53,688 nt of DNA from contig CAKPPI010000002.1 in assembly GCA_934177545.1 (NCBI GenBank), positions 1 through 53,688 of the forward strand, in the 5' to 3' direction. The notes under the pieces were generated by a model that worked only from the letters and a program-made list of their open reading frames with translations, did not search any database and was not told the origin of the DNA. A program made the translations under genes and the position numbers. Below are positions 19,293 to 42,967 of the stretch, in pieces (position 1 is the stretch's first letter; each line of letters starts with the position of its first letter). Source of the DNA: an uncultured Bacilli bacterium (GTDB lineage Bacteria; Bacillota_I; Bacilli_A; RF39; UBA660).

Positions 19293-19835
19293 TTAATCAA
19301 CTTGCTCAGTAGCTTCTACTCTTATTCTACTGTAGAATGATTTTGCCATAACATCGTTTGTAGCATCTAAGTTTAACCATAAACGAAATTCAAAGCTTTG
19401 AGTAGTATTACCTGCTATTGAATAAGAACCTAATTTATTGCTACTAGTTGATAGTTTCCCATTTGATACTGATGTCCCATCTTTCTTTAAATCATATGAT
19501 AAGAAACTATGAGTAAATGTTGCACAATCAGTACAATCACTATCATCATCTAGATAAACATCATATGTTATAGTTCTAGTACCAGTATTTTTTAAGGTAA
19601 AGGTATAAGGTGTATTCTTAAGTCCATCACTATCTTCTTGAGGAGCTACTTTAGTAAGGGCAATAGTTGAGGTTCCTTCAGTATAATTTAGTTGAAGGTT
19701 TTTTGCTATTAAAGTTATGTTTTTATCTCCTCTTAAAGTCATTTTAGCTAGAGCAAAACTTATTCCTACAAAAATAACTATTAATATTAAAAGACTAATA
19801 ATTATAAGTTTCTTGTTACTATCAATTTTTTTCAT
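19293..19835 (-). CDS. Orphan TasA/CalY-like protein with a SipW-type signal peptide
   Basis: 180 aa. The N-terminus KKLIIISLLILIVIFVGISFALAKMTL resembles the signal region of the 37382-39486 paralogues. Motifs YTFTLKNTGTRTITYDVYL, FEFRLWLNLDA and the C-terminal FYSRIRVEATEQ parallel TasA ..IKLQFSFEATQ. Confidence 0.7.
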   Translation of the reverse strand: MKKIDSNKKLIIISLLILIVIFVGISFALAKMTLRGDKNITLIAKNLQLNYTEGTSTIALTKVAPQEDSDGLKNTPYTFTLKNTGTRTITYDVYLDDDSDCTDCATFTHSFLSYDLKKDGTSVSNGKLSTSSNKLGSYSIAGNTTQSFEFRLWLNLDATNDVMAKSFYSRIRVEATEQVD

Positions 19836-34935: not shown

Positions 34936-35364
34936 TTATTTTGACTTTTCCTTTGATTGAAACATAAATAATATGTTAGAAGCAGCTAATCCATATAACA
35001 TTATTTTCATATAGGCTATGAAGGTATTAAAATAGTTAAAATCTACTCCATAACCATACTTTTCATTAAGTACCATATTCTTATCAGCAAAGGCTCTATA
35101 GCCAACTAATATTATGGTAGCAAAAACTATGCATGATGTTAAATTGTAAAATATATTGCCATTTACTCCATCTTGTTTAAAGATAAGGTTGATAACAAAT
35201 AATAAGAAAAGTACTAGGAAGGGAATAAATTCAGGAATTACTGTACTAAAACTTTTACTAAGTCTTGCATTCATTCTTACAATAATGAATAGTGTTATAG
35301 CAAAAGCTCCTAATAATAATATATATTTTAAAATAGCAAACATTATATTTAATATTTTTTTCAT
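34936..35364 (-). CDS. Four-helix membrane protein, last gene of the SipW operon
   Basis: 142 aa with four hydrophobic helices. AGGAGG lies 5 nt upstream of the ATG, and the start is 1 nt after the upstream stop (TAAGATG). Confidence 0.65.
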   Translation of the reverse strand: MKKILNIMFAILKYILLLGAFAITLFIIVRMNARLSKSFSTVIPEFIPFLVLFLLFVINLIFKQDGVNGNIFYNLTSCIVFATIILVGYRAFADKNMVLNEKYGYGVDFNYFNTFIAYMKIMLYGLAASNILFMFQSKEKSK

Positions 35365-35365
35365 C

Positions 35366-36055
35366 TTAGCCTCCTACTACTTCACTTTTATACCATTCTG
35401 ATAACTCTACTAGAAAATCCAAAGTATTTTGATAATTTTTATTAATAGCATTATAGCTATCCTTTGCTAAGAAAAAGATACTCTCTCTGCTTATATCATT
35501 AGTAAAATAATAATTATCAGCATTTTCTAAGTTTGAGGTGATATAACCATTACTTGTTAACAATTGATTAATATTAGTTTTAAGAAAGGGTCTTATTTTT
35601 GATAGACTAGCTATTGAATATGATGAGCTTTCTTCTGAAAGACTATTTATCTGCATGACAATGCAATCATTTAATATACCATTTTGATAAAATTTTCCCA
35701 ATTTATATACATCTTTTAATTCTATATTCTCTTTTTTGGCTAAATTATTGTACTCTTCACTTTCAAATATTTTTACGCAACTATTTAACTTAAATTGTAT
35801 GTTGTTCATATCATAAATATTATTTGTTCCATTATAAGTATTCTGTTGATATAATGATATATTATTTTTAATTTTATTTAGCTTTTCTGTTGTTTTTGCT
35901 TGATTTACAGAAACATCAGAGCTTACATTTACCTTTATACTTAACTCTTTAGCATGATAGAAATTTAAAAATAATAGAAAAAAAGAAAATCCAAAAACAA
36001 TTCCAACTATAACATAGGCAAAGATATTTATATATTCTAATAGTAGTCTTTTCAT
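35366..36055 (-). CDS. N-terminally membrane-anchored protein of unknown function (SipW operon)
   Basis: 229 aa. One N-terminal TM helix (YVIVGIVFGFSFFLLFLNFY) precedes a mixed, Asn-rich extracytoplasmic domain. The start overlaps the upstream stop (TAATG). Confidence 0.65.
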   Translation of the reverse strand: MKRLLLEYINIFAYVIVGIVFGFSFFLLFLNFYHAKELSIKVNVSSDVSVNQAKTTEKLNKIKNNISLYQQNTYNGTNNIYDMNNIQFKLNSCVKIFESEEYNNLAKKENIELKDVYKLGKFYQNGILNDCIVMQINSLSEESSSYSIASLSKIRPFLKTNINQLLTSNGYITSNLENADNYYFTNDISRESIFFLAKDSYNAINKNYQNTLDFLVELSEWYKSEVVGG

Positions 36056-36573
36056 TAGTTAACCTCCTTTGCATTTATTTCAACTTTATAAGAATAAGAT
36101 TTATTTTGCCATTCAGTTGTCTTTGCAGACTCTGGAATATATACTTTTAACTCATATTGATTGGTATTGTTTGGCATTATATATCTATCATCTAATAGTT
36201 TATTTTTTATATCAGAGACACTACCTTTTTTTATAATTTTACCATTTAAAAATAATTGATAATTTAATTGATTATTAGATAATTTGCTATTTTTTTGGTT
36301 CTTTTTTTCTTTAAACAAAACTTCATATCTACTTTTAAAATCGTTAACATTTTTTACACTAAATTTGTAATTTTTAATAGATGAAGCTTCATCTTCTGAC
36401 ATTGGAAATAAATTTTCATTTATGGTTACTTCTTCACTTTCTTTTCTTATTTGTAAAGAACTAACAGAACCAAGGTTATTATAATAAAATGTTTTATACC
36501 ACAAAAAACTAGTTATAACTATAAAGACAAATAACAAAATTCCTCCAAATATTAAAAATATTTTCTTAGTCAT
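36055..36573 (-). CDS. Short TasA/CalY-like protein (possible minor or anchoring subunit)
   Basis: 172 aa. An N-terminal hydrophobic helix is followed by YKFSVKNVNDFKSRYEVLF, LNYQLFLNGKIIKKGSV, YELKVYIPES and the C-terminal SYSYKVEINAKEV. These are collinear with motifs of 19293..19835 and of the three larger paralogues. There is a TAATG overlap with sipW. Confidence 0.65.
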   Translation of the reverse strand: MTKKIFLIFGGILLFVFIVITSFLWYKTFYYNNLGSVSSLQIRKESEEVTINENLFPMSEDEASSIKNYKFSVKNVNDFKSRYEVLFKEKKNQKNSKLSNNQLNYQLFLNGKIIKKGSVSDIKNKLLDDRYIMPNNTNQYELKVYIPESAKTTEWQNKSYSYKVEINAKEVN

Positions 36574-37322
36574 TATTTATACCTTCTCCTTTCAATGTTT
36601 ACATCATTCTTCTTAGAAAAATTTGATTTTTTATTCTTTTTATTGCCTTTTTCTTTATTTTCAGTATTATTTTTAACTTTCTTTTTATCTTTCTTATTTG
36701 GATCATTTTTTATAGTTTTAACTATTTTTATTATATCTGCGCCTATTATTAACACTGTTGGTACTATTATTAGTAATAGCCAACCTAATACGGTACTTAA
36801 TATATATTGTATGTATCCTAATTTTGGTAAACGAATTAAAACCTTACCATATATACTATCAAACGGTTGTCTTGTAGCGTCTTCAGTATTATTTGCATCA
36901 CCTTTAGTCGTAAATAAGTACTTACCATTGCCTGTTTTTTCTATTTTTTTAACTCTATGAGTAACTGTTACACCTGAACTTCGATAATCTGTTGAGTTGA
37001 AAGTTATTACATCACCAACTTTTATTTTTGATGGATCACTTACTCTGGTAGTTATAATTACATCAAGCACATTAATATTTGGTACCATACTTGGACTAAC
37101 TATTGTATAAGCGGATACCAAAGCTGGTTTTTGAATTCCTTTTTGCAAGTTATTCTTTTGATCAATAAAGTTAATAATTATTACTAAGAAAACTATAATC
37201 ATTATTAGAAAAATAGAATACATAATAACTGTTAAAATATAGTGTATTATTCTCTTAAGTTTTTCAAAAAAAGAGAGATTGGAAAAATGTATTGTTGTCT
37301 CATTACCTTTCAAACATATCAC
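36573..37322 (-). CDS. sipW: Signal peptidase I, ER/archaeal (SipW) type, with a Lys/Asn-rich C-terminal tail
   Basis: 249 aa. It has the catalytic Ser box VSPSMVPNINVLDVII, then GDVITFNS, VTHRVKKIEK and TKGDANNTED. This is the S26B order, without the bacterial-type Ser-Lys box spacing. TM helices flank the domain on both sides. The last ~50 aa are KKDKKKVKNNTENKEKGNKKNKK... The track start is a GTG; the true start is uncertain. Confidence 0.8.
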   Translation of the reverse strand: MICLKGNETTIHFSNLSFFEKLKRIIHYILTVIMYSIFLIMIIVFLVIIINFIDQKNNLQKGIQKPALVSAYTIVSPSMVPNINVLDVIITTRVSDPSKIKVGDVITFNSTDYRSSGVTVTHRVKKIEKTGNGKYLFTTKGDANNTEDATRQPFDSIYGKVLIRLPKLGYIQYILSTVLGWLLLIIVPTVLIIGADIIKIVKTIKNDPNKKDKKKVKNNTENKEKGNKKNKKSNFSKKNDVNIERRRYK

Positions 37323-37381
37323 CCACTTATCATTCCTTCTATTATAAATATATCACATTTTAGAAGGATTTAAAAGGAAAG

Positions 37382-38017
37382 TTATTTATTTAATTTAGCT
37401 GTAGCATGTATTGCCACTTGAACTGCAAATGTTCTTGAAACATTATCAATTTTGGCATTTTCATCTACCCACATTCTTAGACGATAATATTCAGTTTGAC
37501 TATTAGTAATAGATTTTTTGTATAAAATCATACTTCCTTTTTCACTTCCTAGTTCTGATTTACTAGATATTGGAGAAAATTTTGTTGGTTTCATTACTTC
37601 TTTATATATATCTGATTCTTTTTTTTCTAAATACAATTTTACGTCTTTATTATTTAAGGTTGATTTTTCTAATTTTAAAGCAGATAATTCATAAGTAATT
37701 TTAGCTGAACCACTTATTGTAGAAATCACGCTAAAATCGAAATATTGATCTGCAGCTGATAATTTTTTACCAGATGCATCTGTTAGTGGCATAGCATTAA
37801 TAATTGTTATACCATTTGTGTCTTCTGTATAGTCAAGTGAAATATTACCAGTAGTTATTGTATTAATCTTATCTCCTTTTTTAGTTATTGTAACTGCAAC
37901 TACTGATATTCCTATAGTAAGTAACACTATCAATAATAGAGCTAACAACATAAAATAGAGTTTTCCCTTTTTTTCTTCTCTTAAATCATTATCAGCTACT
38001 CTTTCTTTTCTCATCAT
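37382..38017 (-). CDS. TasA/CalY-like secreted protein, paralogue 3
   Basis: 211 aa. It has the signal-like region LALLLIVLLTIGISVVAVTI, then GNISLDYTEDTNGITIINAMPLTDASGKKL, YFDFSV, YYRLRMWVDENA and the C-terminal FAVQVAIHATAK. Confidence 0.75.
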   Translation of the reverse strand: MMRKERVADNDLREEKKGKLYFMLLALLLIVLLTIGISVVAVTITKKGDKINTITTGNISLDYTEDTNGITIINAMPLTDASGKKLSAADQYFDFSVISTISGSAKITYELSALKLEKSTLNNKDVKLYLEKKESDIYKEVMKPTKFSPISSKSELGSEKGSMILYKKSITNSQTEYYRLRMWVDENAKIDNVSRTFAVQVAIHATAKLNK

Positions 38018-38063
38018 ATACCTCTCCTATTCTATCCAAATTGTAGCATATTTTTATTTTATG

Positions 38064-38098
38064 GTAAAGAAAAAAGTGTCATAGATTAGACACTTTTA
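38064..38098 (-). terminator. Rho-independent terminator after paralogue 2
   Basis: Minus-strand RNA reads AAAGUGUC-UAAUCUAU-GACACUUU followed by UUUCUUU. It differs from the 38808..38842 terminator at a single loop base. Confidence 0.85.
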
Positions 38099-38113
38099 TA
38101 GAGTAAATAAATA

Positions 38114-38740
38114 CTATTGAGCTGATGCTGCACCATAGACATTTACTTTTATTGAATAAACTTGTTTTGTTGAAGGTGCTGTATAATTTTGATCTACCCA
38201 CATTCTTAAACGGTATGTAGTTGTTTGATCAACAGTTTCATCAGTTGTATTAATAGTACCTGATTTCAAAATACGTTCTCCAACTGTAGCTCCAGCACTA
38301 TTACCAGATTGAGCTTGAGGTAATTCAGAAACTAAAGTTGGGGCTAATTCTACAGTGCTATCAGAATTACTTGTTAAATATACTTTAACGCCTGTATTAG
38401 GTAAGCTATTAGTAACTTCAGTAGCTGTAATTGCATAATTTAGTTGGGTTGTTCCTTTACCTACAATTCTGGCATTAACTGTAAAATCAAAATATTGACC
38501 CTCTGCACTTAGTGCTTTACCTGACTCATCTGTAATAGGTAATGCATCAGTTAGTGTAATACCGTTAGTATTTTCAGTATAACTCATTGTAATAGTACCA
38601 GTTGTAATTGTATTTGTTGTTTGTCCTGTACCAACATAAGTAAATGCTGCAAAGGAAATACCCACTACTGCTACTATTAAAATAGCAACACCTAATATAG
38701 AAATAAGTATTTGTTTTGATGAATTTGTATTTTCGTTCAT
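38114..38740 (-). CDS. TasA/CalY-like secreted protein, paralogue 2
   Basis: 208 aa. SSKQILISILGVAILIVAVVGISFAAFTY resembles SipW-dependent signal peptides (TasA ..TWAAFND, CalY ..TFAYFSD). It continues with TGTITMSY, ALPITDESGKAL, YFDFTV, YRLRMWVDQNY and YSIKVNVYGAASAQ. Confidence 0.8.
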   Translation of the reverse strand: MNENTNSSKQILISILGVAILIVAVVGISFAAFTYVGTGQTTNTITTGTITMSYTENTNGITLTDALPITDESGKALSAEGQYFDFTVNARIVGKGTTQLNYAITATEVTNSLPNTGVKVYLTSNSDSTVELAPTLVSELPQAQSGNSAGATVGERILKSGTINTTDETVDQTTTYRLRMWVDQNYTAPSTKQVYSIKVNVYGAASAQ

Positions 38741-38807
38741 CTTTGTCTAACCTCCTTACAATATAAAGATAACACAGATAAGTATAAAATAACAAGTATT
38801 TTTTGAT

Positions 38808-38842
38808 TAAAAGAAAAAAGTGTCAGAGATTAGACACTTTAC
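38808..38842 (-). terminator. Rho-independent terminator after paralogue 1
   Basis: Minus-strand RNA reads AAAGUGUC-UAAUCUCU-GACACUUU followed by UUUCUUUU. The 8-bp perfect stem arms are at 38833..38840 and 38817..38824. Confidence 0.85.
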
Positions 38843-38850
38843 TTGGTAAA

Positions 38851-39486
38851 CTACTTAGCTTGAGCAGTACCATAAACGTTAACACGTAAAATATATTTGT
38901 GTTGAGTAGCAAATTCTGTAGTATTATCACCATTAGTATGACTACCATAATTTTGATCTACCCACATTCTTAAACGATAACTATCTGTTCCAGTAGCATT
39001 ATAAGTATCTTCTTTAAGAATATACTGTCCATCAGGGGCACCAGAAGCATTGCTAGATGTAGTCTTTAATGTAGATACTAAAGCTGGTTCAAAAACAGCT
39101 GTCTCAGTATCACCACTAACAGATGTTAAGTAAATCTTAATTCCACTATCAGGAATATCAGATACAGTATCTTTTGTAGCAGTAATTGCATAACTAATGC
39201 TAGTATCACCAGCAATAGTTGCTCCTACTGTAAAATCAAAAGTATTATTATCTCCTTTTAATGCTTTTCCAGCTGTATCTGTTATAGGAAGTGCATCTGT
39301 TAAATTAATACCATTTTGCGGTTCACTATAACTCATCGTAATAGTACCAGTTGTAATTGTATTTTCTTTTTGACCTGCTTGACTAAAACTAAATGCAGCA
39401 AATGAAATACCTACTACTGCTACTACTAAAATGGCAACCCCTAGTACAGATAATAGAATTTGCTTTGATGAATTATTATTGTTCAT
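38851..39486 (-). CDS. TasA/CalY-like secreted protein, paralogue 1
   Basis: 211 aa. It has SSKQILLSVLGVAILVVAVVGISFAAFSF, then TGTITMSY, ALPITDTAGKAL, FDFTV, YRLRMWVDQNY and YILRVNVYGTAQAK. Confidence 0.8.
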   Translation of the reverse strand: MNNNNSSKQILLSVLGVAILVVAVVGISFAAFSFSQAGQKENTITTGTITMSYSEPQNGINLTDALPITDTAGKALKGDNNTFDFTVGATIAGDTSISYAITATKDTVSDIPDSGIKIYLTSVSGDTETAVFEPALVSTLKTTSSNASGAPDGQYILKEDTYNATGTDSYRLRMWVDQNYGSHTNGDNTTEFATQHKYILRVNVYGTAQAK

Positions 39487-39557
39487 CCTCGTCTAACCTC
39501 CTTTACAATATAAATATAACATAGGTAAAAATGGAAAGCAAGATGTTTTTCAACTTT

Positions 39558-42421: not shown

Positions 42422-42967
42422 TCACTCTTCAAGATATTTTTCTAAAAATTGTGAAATTATCTGAACCATATGCTCTTGTTCTTCACTAAACATTTTTCCT
42501 GTATGTACATCTATTATTAGGATTAAACCAATAACTTCTCCCTCTGACAGAATAGGATTTACTAAATAATCAAACACTTTATTAGACTTACTATCTGATT
42601 CTATTATTTTTTTATATTCAACACTATACTTACTAGTTTTTTCATTATTGAGCAATATATTTTCTAATTCGCTTGAAATATGTTTACTAATAAATTCCTT
42701 TTTTAATGGACCACTTCCAGCAATAATATTATCACGATCTGCTACAAGGATACTATTCTTAATAGTATTAGTTATAGTATCAATTAAATTCTGTGATATT
42801 TCTTTTAAATCTGATGATGATGTGAATTTTTTTAGAACTATTTCTTCGCCATTAGTATATATTTCTAAGGATTCACCTTCTCTAATGCGTAATGTTTTTC
42901 TTATTTCTTTTGGTAATACAATTCTCCCTAAATCATCTATTCTTCTTACTACGCCTGTTGATTTCAT
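42422..42967 (-). CDS. spoVT: Stage V sporulation protein T (AbrB-family regulator with GAF-like C-domain)
   Basis: 181 aa. The N-terminus MKSTGVVRRIDDLGRIVLPKEIRKTLRIREGESLEIY is the swapped-hairpin AbrB/SpoVT domain. A ~120-aa sensor domain follows. Confidence 0.9.
   Translation of the reverse strand: MKSTGVVRRIDDLGRIVLPKEIRKTLRIREGESLEIYTNGEEIVLKKFTSSSDLKEISQNLIDTITNTIKNSILVADRDNIIAGSGPLKKEFISKHISSELENILLNNEKTSKYSVEYKKIIESDSKSNKVFDYLVNPILSEGEVIGLILIIDVHTGKMFSEEQEHMVQIISQFLEKYLEE

Follow-up and report, generated by a model that had tools for sequence, protein, structure and literature searches.

The fibre subunit TasA, whose gene stands beside that of the signal peptidase SipW in Bacillus, uses its first 11 mature residues (positions 28-38) as donor strand (PMC9674648). 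In the bsa operon of Clostridium perfringens, one TasA-like paralogue polymerises and the other does not, and the oligomers are membrane-anchored. In the model put forward by the authors who described BsaA, donor-strand exchange takes place at the membrane and is gated by SipW cleavage; they also report multi-paralogue TasA-like operons with signal peptidases in other Firmicutes (10.1101/2024.11.04.621531). The archaeal Tat-fimbriae (tafi) are assembled by donor-strand exchange in a chaperone-free manner that depends on the signal peptidase TafD (PMC11821415). In this study, we analyzed a seven-gene cluster with a SipW-like signal peptidase on a stretch of 53,688 nucleotides, hereafter the window, from an uncultured Bacilli bacterium (GenBank assembly GCA_934177545.1, contig CAKPPI010000002.1). 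Judging from sequence features, predicted structures and analogy with the systems above, we lean towards regarding this locus as a surface-fibre (pilus or matrix) system of SipW/TasA type that would depend on a dedicated signal peptidase.

Signal peptidase, subunit family and expression signals

Seven open reading frames occupy positions 34936-39486 of the window, all on the minus strand and all where the initial annotation had placed them. In the direction of transcription, they begin with two major-type subunit genes, A1 (38851-39486; 211 amino acids, aa), whose product combines a hydrophobic N-terminal helix with a predicted beta jelly-roll domain, and A2 (38114-38740; 208 aa), whose product shares 61% identity with A1. 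The minor-type subunit gene A3 (37382-38017; 211 aa; 34% identity with A1) is followed by the gene encoding an archaeal/endoplasmic reticulum (ER)-type signal peptidase I (36573-37322; 249 aa). The last three genes encode B (36055-36573; 172 aa), a divergent short member of the subunit family, C (35366-36055; 229 aa), with a single predicted N-terminal transmembrane helix, and D (34936-35364; 142 aa), a polytopic membrane protein by hydropathy. The peptidase gene is translationally coupled to these three, through the junctions that had been read from the sequence before: the start of B overlaps the stop of the peptidase gene and the start of C overlaps the stop of B, both as TAATG, and D is coupled to C by TAAGATG.

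The peptidase is, by its sequence, an archaeal/ER-type signal peptidase I with intact catalytic boxes. It passes TIGR02228, the model for the S26B-like group including SipW and SEC11, with 91.6 bits against a cut-off of 51.85, and was the only one of the seven proteins with an above-cut-off match in Pfam and NCBIfam. Human SEC11A and SEC11C are its nearest solved relatives by sequence (2e-6). The SPSM, VTHRV and TKGDAN boxes, on which the initial annotation had based the same assignment, align with the catalytic boxes of SEC11A and provide the candidate catalytic residues S78, H122 and D142. The Ser box has the form S-x-S-M and the Asp box KGDxN, and His replaces the bacterial Lys in the HRV box. 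These boxes, and with them the three residues, are invariant in 54 orthologues. The equivalog model of Bacillus SipW, NF046067, gives 79.2 bits against a cut-off of 190; the peptidase belongs to the same subfamily as Bacillus SipW and, by this model, is not its orthologue. Hydrophobic segments at the N- and C-termini are predicted to be transmembrane helices, and the final 50 residues, with 20 Lys or Arg and 10 Asn, form the Lys/Asn-rich tail noticed earlier, which is predicted to be cytoplasmic. The start codon is uncertain, either the GTG or a TTG three codons on.

The species representatives of GTDB were scanned, and 182 stretches encode a relative, from which 73 loci were kept. All were retrieved through the A gene itself, and no related genome lacking the locus came to light among them. 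In these loci, the peptidase gene always adjoins genes of the A family. A3 constitutes a separate orthologous group and is always found directly upstream of the peptidase gene. By tblastn and profile searches, the same order was recovered in about 50 species: spoVT-metG-tatD, one to six A-type genes, one A3-type gene, peptidase, B, C, D, and rsmA-yabG-veg. Housekeeping proteins of the species with the locus are down to about 50% identical to those of the window, and the order is unchanged in the most divergent locus sampled (L070 in our numbering of related loci). Since the same order extends over about 50 species including L070, the locus must go back to the ancestor of the clade rather than having been inserted recently. 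The neighbours tatD (PF01026, 2e-76) and rsmA (TIGR00755, 3e-72) were correctly named in the initial annotation, but its view that the locus interrupts a conserved yabD...ksgA block needs correction, as the locus is fixed between tatD and rsmA across the whole clade. The hosts are metagenome-assembled genomes (MAGs) of uncultured gut Bacilli or 'Tenericutes', Clostridium sp. CAG:451, Candidatus Onthousia spp., Mycoplasma sp. CAG:611 and a chromosome-level MAG (OZ006970.1, 1.52 Mb), and the gut samples in which the loci occur are Hadza, Brazilian, chicken and rabbit ones. NCBI classifies Candidatus Onthousia within Bacilli incertae sedis. Most closely related to the window are L014 (CAG:451), L017, L027, L037 and L004.

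A1, A2, A3 and B belong to one unnamed family, and Pfam, NCBIfam and the PDB sequences contain no match to any of the four. PDB sequence searches with single sequences and with the A-, C- and D-family profiles likewise gave nothing significant. A total of 1,488 relatives were obtained by a word-indexed search, none with a Pfam domain, and their source names gave only 'hypothetical protein'. An exhaustive hidden Markov model (HMM) search of 1.84 billion representatives yielded 4,031 clusters, at 50% identity, with E<=1e-3 and 1,740 with E<=1e-10; cluster names were sought for ten diverse family representatives, and none was named. The near-invariant residues of the family are N, T, G, Y, I, A, P, F, L, R and W. 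The subunit family is much larger than the locus, and many of its members are giant multidomain proteins. A length of 300-1,743 aa is reached by 60 of the best 150 representatives, which carry the module at the N-terminus, with C-terminal extensions that contain Big_2, Listeria-Bacteroides (Flg_new) repeats or DUF6273 in several of the long members scanned. Neither LPXTG nor a C-terminal hydrophobic anchor is present in the 60 long members, both are also absent from A1-A3, and the locus has no sortase gene; sortase-assembled Gram-positive pili were rejected as a class for the locus.

Family members are also scattered in the genomes without an adjoining peptidase gene. Giant members of 1,561-1,811 aa with an N-terminal module of about 200 aa were seen elsewhere in related genomes (L074:8001-15080 and L077:10001-20379), some arranged in tandem and others with two short B-like members behind them; one contains Listeria-Bacteroides repeats and another gives a weak Big_2 match. 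Gene calls and searches revealed no peptidase gene beside the extra family members examined in related genomes. One genome with extra family members encodes murG, murB and ftsQAZ, which makes a cell wall probable.

The 5' regions of A1 and A2 are near-identical, each with a strong AGGAGG ribosome-binding site. A terminator-like hairpin with a T-run lies 3' of A1 (38817-38840, minus strand; core AAGTGTCTAATCTCTGACACTTTTT, the same across species) and another 3' of A2 (38072-38097, minus strand; identical invariant core, loop TAATCTAT), and none is found between A3 and the peptidase gene. From this distribution, we infer that A1, A2 and A3-peptidase-B-C-D are the likely transcription units. A promoter scan gave 38 sites versus 34 expected and is uninformative in such AT-rich DNA.

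The hairpins contain an invariant 25-nt core, AAGTGTCTAATCT(C/A)TGACACTTTTT, located in the window at 38819-38838 and 38075-38094 on the minus strand and found in 34 of 77 related loci (for example L013:8622-8641 and L016:6148-6167). The stem and its 8-nt loop TAATCTNT are the same across species whose subunits share no more than about 55-60% identity, and the intergenic DNA on either side is not conserved. Because such conservation goes beyond the need of a plain intrinsic terminator, a sequence-specific RNA or DNA partner of the hairpin is possible. A search of the window against Rfam, hairpin included, gave no match. Every major-type copy has its own hairpin, and the number of copies between tatD and the A3-type gene varies from one to six per species (L013:8001-12180 compared with L012 and L019), which together suggest that entire expression units have repeatedly been duplicated in tandem and lost.

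Leader, predicted fold and accessory proteins

The leader of the family ends in a canonical motif for signal peptidase I, which fits the -1/-3 rule for this enzyme and is preceded at -5 by a helix-breaking Gly. The leader consensus is a hydrophobic helix of 19-21 residues followed by G(-5)-[VI]-S(-3)-[FY]-A(-1)↓A-F-[TS]-Y-[ST]-K-x-G-x3-N-T-I-T-T-G-T-I-T-M-x-Y-T-E, where the arrow marks the predicted cleavage. The core motif G-x-[ST]-[FY]-A-x-F occurs in 313 of 403 family members, Ser occupies -3 in 89%, and positions +1 to +8 are conserved. The helix ends of the three paralogues are as the initial annotation gave them, GISFAAF(S/T) in two and GISVVAVTI in the third. In A1, the helix ends VVGISFA↓AFSF, with the predicted site after Ala30. 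A3 has a longer charged N-region and, in the genus of the window, the variant predicted site GISVVA↓VT; the A3-type proteins of most other species read G[IV]S[MV]A↓TFTYTKE.

The mature domain of A1 is confidently predicted to be a jelly-roll. The AlphaFold model made from a 74-sequence alignment is all-beta with ten strands (predicted local distance difference test score, pLDDT, 85.5; predicted template modelling score, pTM, 0.83), and the full-length model from a 20-sequence alignment reaches pLDDT 67.5 and pTM 0.65. The TasA fibre 8aur_A is the top Foldseek match in the PDB for both models, with E 1.9e-3, probability 0.99 and template modelling score (TM) 0.43 for the mature form, and E 7.4e-4, probability 1.00 and TM 0.39 for the full-length one. 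The archaeal bundling pilin 7ueg_A ranks 6 with the full-length model and 42 with the mature model. In the mature model, residues 1-10 have a pLDDT of only 33 although they are among the most conserved of the family. In the structural comparison with the TasA jelly-roll that the initial annotation called for, TasA thus ranks first, at a low TM and with generic jelly-rolls close behind, and these models make a specific fold link between A1 and TasA no more than suggestive.

For profile comparison, a TasA alignment of 33 sequences was used; its query is 99% identical to the database entry, and all matches carry PF12389. Aligned to it by hhalign, the A family scores 34.9 (probability 33%, P 4.4e-4), compared with at most 20.0 in 20 column-permuted alignments, 17.4 for the reversed alignment and at most 22 for B, C, D and the peptidase. 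The aligned part is confined to the leader with its cleavage site and to the first strands, VVGISfAaFtysk..NtItTGtItM...NAlP versus LVGGGTWAAFNDvet..nsfAAGtLdL...NLKP. By sequence, the resemblance of this part to TasA is real but limited. The motifs TGTITMSY, ALPITD, YRLRMWVDQNY and ILRVNVYGTAQ, from which a common TasA/CalY motif order had been proposed, all exist in the sequence, and the proposed equivalences of TGTITMSY and ALPITD are upheld by this alignment, which runs up to NA.P/NLKP.

B, which had been taken for a short family member, is confirmed as one by hhalign against the A family (probability 97.5%, E 5e-12, 165 columns; reversed control 0.1). In B orthologues, TS.LWY.FFY after the transmembrane helix replaces the S-[FY]-A↓A-F site, and the NTITTG strand motif is missing. 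C has one N-terminal hydrophobic segment by hydropathy, in keeping with the anchoring assigned to it earlier, and an external domain of about 195 aa with two invariant Cys. Its family is a tiny, lineage-restricted orphan one, with 73 clusters among 5.8 billion proteins, nearly all of about 229 aa and without family or name. D belongs to another orphan family and shows three to four hydrophobic segments, so that the four helices given to it before are at the upper end of what hydropathy supports. Neither C nor D matches Pfam or PDB sequences, and hhalign finds both unrelated to the A family and to TasA; the initial annotation spoke of five family members in the locus, and C is not one. A relationship of C to SPCS3 was considered and dropped, as the C profile has no significant match to any PDB chain.

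Proposed fibre assembly and its alternatives

The mechanism we propose is modelled on the assembly at the membrane suggested for BsaA (10.1101/2024.11.04.621531) and on the subunit roles put forward for tafi (PMC11821415). A1 and A2 would be the major subunits, with promoter regions, strong ribosome-binding sites and terminators of their own and with one to six copies between species. They would be exported by Sec and retained in the membrane by the leader. The predicted cleavage would free the conserved N-terminal segment AF(S/T)(Y/F)(S/T)K.G, which is disordered in the monomer model and could become the donor strand in the next subunit, like in TasA, AbpA and BsaA. A3, presumably co-transcribed with the peptidase, may be a minor subunit acting as initiator or tip. 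B, devoid of cleavage and donor motifs, might receive the final strand and remain membrane-bound, possibly uncleaved, so as to anchor or terminate the fibre, and C and D may be membrane accessory factors of the peptidase or of the assembly site. The giant members with Big_2 or Listeria-Bacteroides repeats, which have no LPXTG or C-terminal anchor, could be displayed via the same N-terminal module.

Several observations weigh against fibres of this type. The match to the TasA fold is weak (TM 0.39-0.43, E about 1e-3). CBM32, viral VP2 and Pgp3, all generic jelly-rolls, score nearly as high, and the Foldseek list continues just below TasA with carbohydrate-binding modules, jelly-rolls of viral capsids and chaperone-usher pilins. 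With leaders trimmed, the mature domains give P 0.13 against TasA by hhalign, equal to the reversed controls, and lend no support to the equivalences once proposed for YRLRMWVDQNY and VNVYG. Profile searches likewise link them to no solved fibre subunit at a significant level. A1, A2, A3 and B do not match PF12389 (Peptidase_M73) at E<=1, which speaks against the membership in the camelysin-TasA family that the initial annotation expected. Its assignment of the leaders to the SipW-cognate class also fails, since A1 reaches 10.4 bits with the SipW-dependent leader model TIGR04088 (cut-off 19 bits; TasA control 41.4) and A2, A3 and the orphan member described below have no match. The hydrophobic segment of about 19-21 residues is long and could be a stable membrane anchor. 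Fibre formation, cleavage and polymerisation are themselves inferred from sequence and models, and the roles suggested for A3, B, C and D are read from sequence features and gene order. If the peptidase were the only type I signal peptidase of the organism, it would not be dedicated to the A family.

The alternative that survives best is surface display without fibres, to which we give a real though minor share of the probability. The helix would then be an uncleaved signal-anchor, or the cleaved protein would stay associated as a monomer; the jelly-roll would be a membrane-proximal stalk for monomeric coat proteins or adhesins in a lineage with few other anchoring systems, and the peptidase a general type I signal peptidase. 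The length of the hydrophobic segment suits such a role, and so do the 40% of best representatives that are large multidomain proteins, in which the N-terminal module is the sole possible attachment. The scattered members without adjoining peptidase and the position of the locus in a housekeeping region point in the same direction. Related uncultured Bacilli orders, which may or may not include the window organism, reportedly have no sortases (PMC10868615). However, the family-wide G-[VI]-S-[FY]-A↓A-F conforms to the -1/-3 rule and the residues just after it are conserved. The peptidase gene occurs in strict linkage with genes of the family, including coupling to that of member B, the leader and first strands are TasA-like, and the TasA fibre is the top fold match. 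Major genes with their own terminators and minor genes in an operon are, in addition, the typical architecture of pilus operons, which argues for the SipW/TasA-type fibre system rather than for monomeric display.

The same mechanism might serve spore-associated fibres, as a component of coat or appendage, instead of a vegetative matrix or pilus; we regard this as improbable. It draws on the sporulation-linked neighbours spoVT, yabG, spoVG, yabP and yabQ and on the first description of TasA as spore-associated (PMC9674648). However, the neighbourhood is a conserved origin-proximal block of Bacilli, so adjacency has little weight. The A family is unrelated to the endospore appendage family DUF4183, with no match to it, and the upstream regions of A1 and A2, as read from the sequence, look housekeeping-type with an extended -10 element, which is weak evidence.

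We give very little credence to archaeal-style type IV pilins with the N-terminal helix kept in the filament core. A sub-threshold match to Pilin_N (E 0.14) and weak matches to the archaeal pilins 6nav and 8tib (E 0.11-0.56) hint at them, and these are probably due to the hydrophobic helix. Against them, prepilin peptidase, assembly ATPase and platform protein are absent from the locus, no conserved Gly or Ala at -1 and no class III signal motif precede the helix, and the conserved cleavage-type motif follows the helix instead of preceding it. Secreted camelysin-like (Peptidase_M73) metalloproteases, for which the historical MEROPS M73 assignment of CalY and TasA is the sole support, deserve scarcely any, given the lack of a PF12389 match and of a conserved His/Glu/Asp metal-binding set among the near-invariant residues of the family.

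The SipW/TasA-type reading can also be extended to a general surface-assembly core of sortase-poor, small-genome gut Bacilli, although we think this extension rather unlikely. Leader cleavage and donor-strand polymerisation would be coupled by a membrane complex of the peptidase, C and D, and the uncleavable B would serve as anchor of the fibres. Giant adhesin-like proteins, in their hundreds, would join the fibres via the N-terminal module that they share, and the invariant 3' hairpin would set the subunit stoichiometry. In such a complex, the single-pass C could be likened to SPCS3 by topology only, and D would be the polytopic partner. If true, the core would take over the function of sortase display and be what the signal peptidase complex of eukaryotes is, in bacterial form.

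Genomic setting and comparison with known systems

The locus lies within an origin-proximal block of housekeeping and sporulation genes, with mfd, spoVT, metG and tatD on one side and rsmA, yabG, veg, spoVG, yabP, yabQ, tilS and ftsH on the other. The AbrB-like gene upstream of metG (42422-42967, minus strand) was identified as spoVT by its MazE/AbrB N-terminal domain and SpoVT_C. The presence of spoVT together with yabG, yabP and yabQ nearby indicates that the organism has retained at least part of the sporulation gene set. The G+C content over positions 38000-39500, which include A1 and A2, is 0.31-0.33 compared with about 0.25 around. Since the locus is ancestral to the clade, an Ala/Gly/Thr-rich composition or high expression is a likelier cause than foreign origin.

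An additional family member of 180 aa, overlooked in the initial annotation and lying outside the coordinates noted there, is encoded at 19293-19835 on the minus strand, about 15 kb from the locus. This orphan was found by hmmsearch with the A-family profile (4e-20) and the B-family profile (6e-19) about equally well; its leader ends VGISFALAK, and it has no Pfam match. The gene sits between those of a ClpC-like ATPase and a DcuC-type transporter.

If the proposed reading is true, TasA-type donor-strand fibres extend to Bacilli of the human and animal gut that form a large and abundant, uncultured group, through a subunit family of about 4,000 clusters that is invisible to current annotation. 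The system may explain surface attachment and gut adhesion in lineages reportedly without sortases; a role in attachment is made possible by the giant members that carry adhesin-type repeats and no other recognisable anchor. Experimental handles are provided by the predicted cleavage site, the candidate catalytic residues, the possibly uncleaved paralogue as comparison, and the two orphan membrane partners tied to an ER-type peptidase.

No description of this locus or family was found in the literature searched. The claim of the initial annotation that the locus is uncharacterised holds insofar as Pfam, NCBIfam and family searches give no annotation, but the kind of operon is already known from bsa and tafA-G. 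Nor can the size of the locus alone serve as a distinction, as had been thought, since both of these already pair a signal peptidase with multiple subunits.

The operons tapA-sipW-tasA of B. subtilis and sipW-tasA-calY of the B. cereus group resemble the locus in having a dedicated archaeal/ER-type peptidase beside exported jelly-roll subunits (PMC9674648, PMC10151520). In both, the leader ends in small residues followed by A-F, the conserved mature N-terminal segment is placed like the donor strand of TasA, and an accessory relative stands beside the major subunit, TapA there and A3 or B here. The subunits of the locus, however, do not fit PF12389 or TIGR04088, their mature domains have no significant sequence similarity to TasA, and the peptidase falls short of the SipW equivalog. 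The locus has no TapA-like gene, but several major paralogues with individual terminators and two additional orphan membrane proteins, C and D, and its family has grown to thousands of members including giant multidomain ones.

The sipW-bsaA-bsaB-bsaC operon of C. perfringens likewise combines a SipW gene with at least two TasA-like paralogues (10.1101/2024.11.04.621531). BsaA, however, is recognisably TasA-related and its subunits are locked together by an N-E-K isopeptide triad, the Lys of which has no conserved equivalent in the locus family; the operon, in which nothing corresponds to C or D, also includes a von Willebrand A protein and has a sortase as neighbour. The tafA-G genes of Haloarcula hispanica are similar in number, about seven, with the dedicated signal peptidase I TafD, a major subunit, proposed tip, adapter and anchor minor subunits, and an accessory membrane protein that is suggested to act together with TafD (PMC11821415). 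They differ in being archaeal, in Tat export, in unrelated subunit families, in the four transmembrane helices of TafD and its DUF5305 partner, and in the inclusion of a regulator gene. The archaeal bundling pili (ABP) formed by AbpA and AbpB share a TasA-like jelly-roll, cleavage by signal peptidase I and an N-terminal donor strand (PMC9245690), and 7ueg_A is in the fold list of A1; the abp operon has no dedicated peptidase and its subunits no sequence similarity to the locus family.

The locus is thus most likely a divergent version of a kind already known from TasA/TapA/SipW, BsaA/BsaB/SipW, TafA-G with TafD, and ABP. What is new beside these systems is a subunit family outside all current models, a leader variant, a conserved accessory set of a possibly uncleavable paralogue with two orphan membrane proteins, and a massive expansion of the family that includes proteins with adhesin-type repeats.

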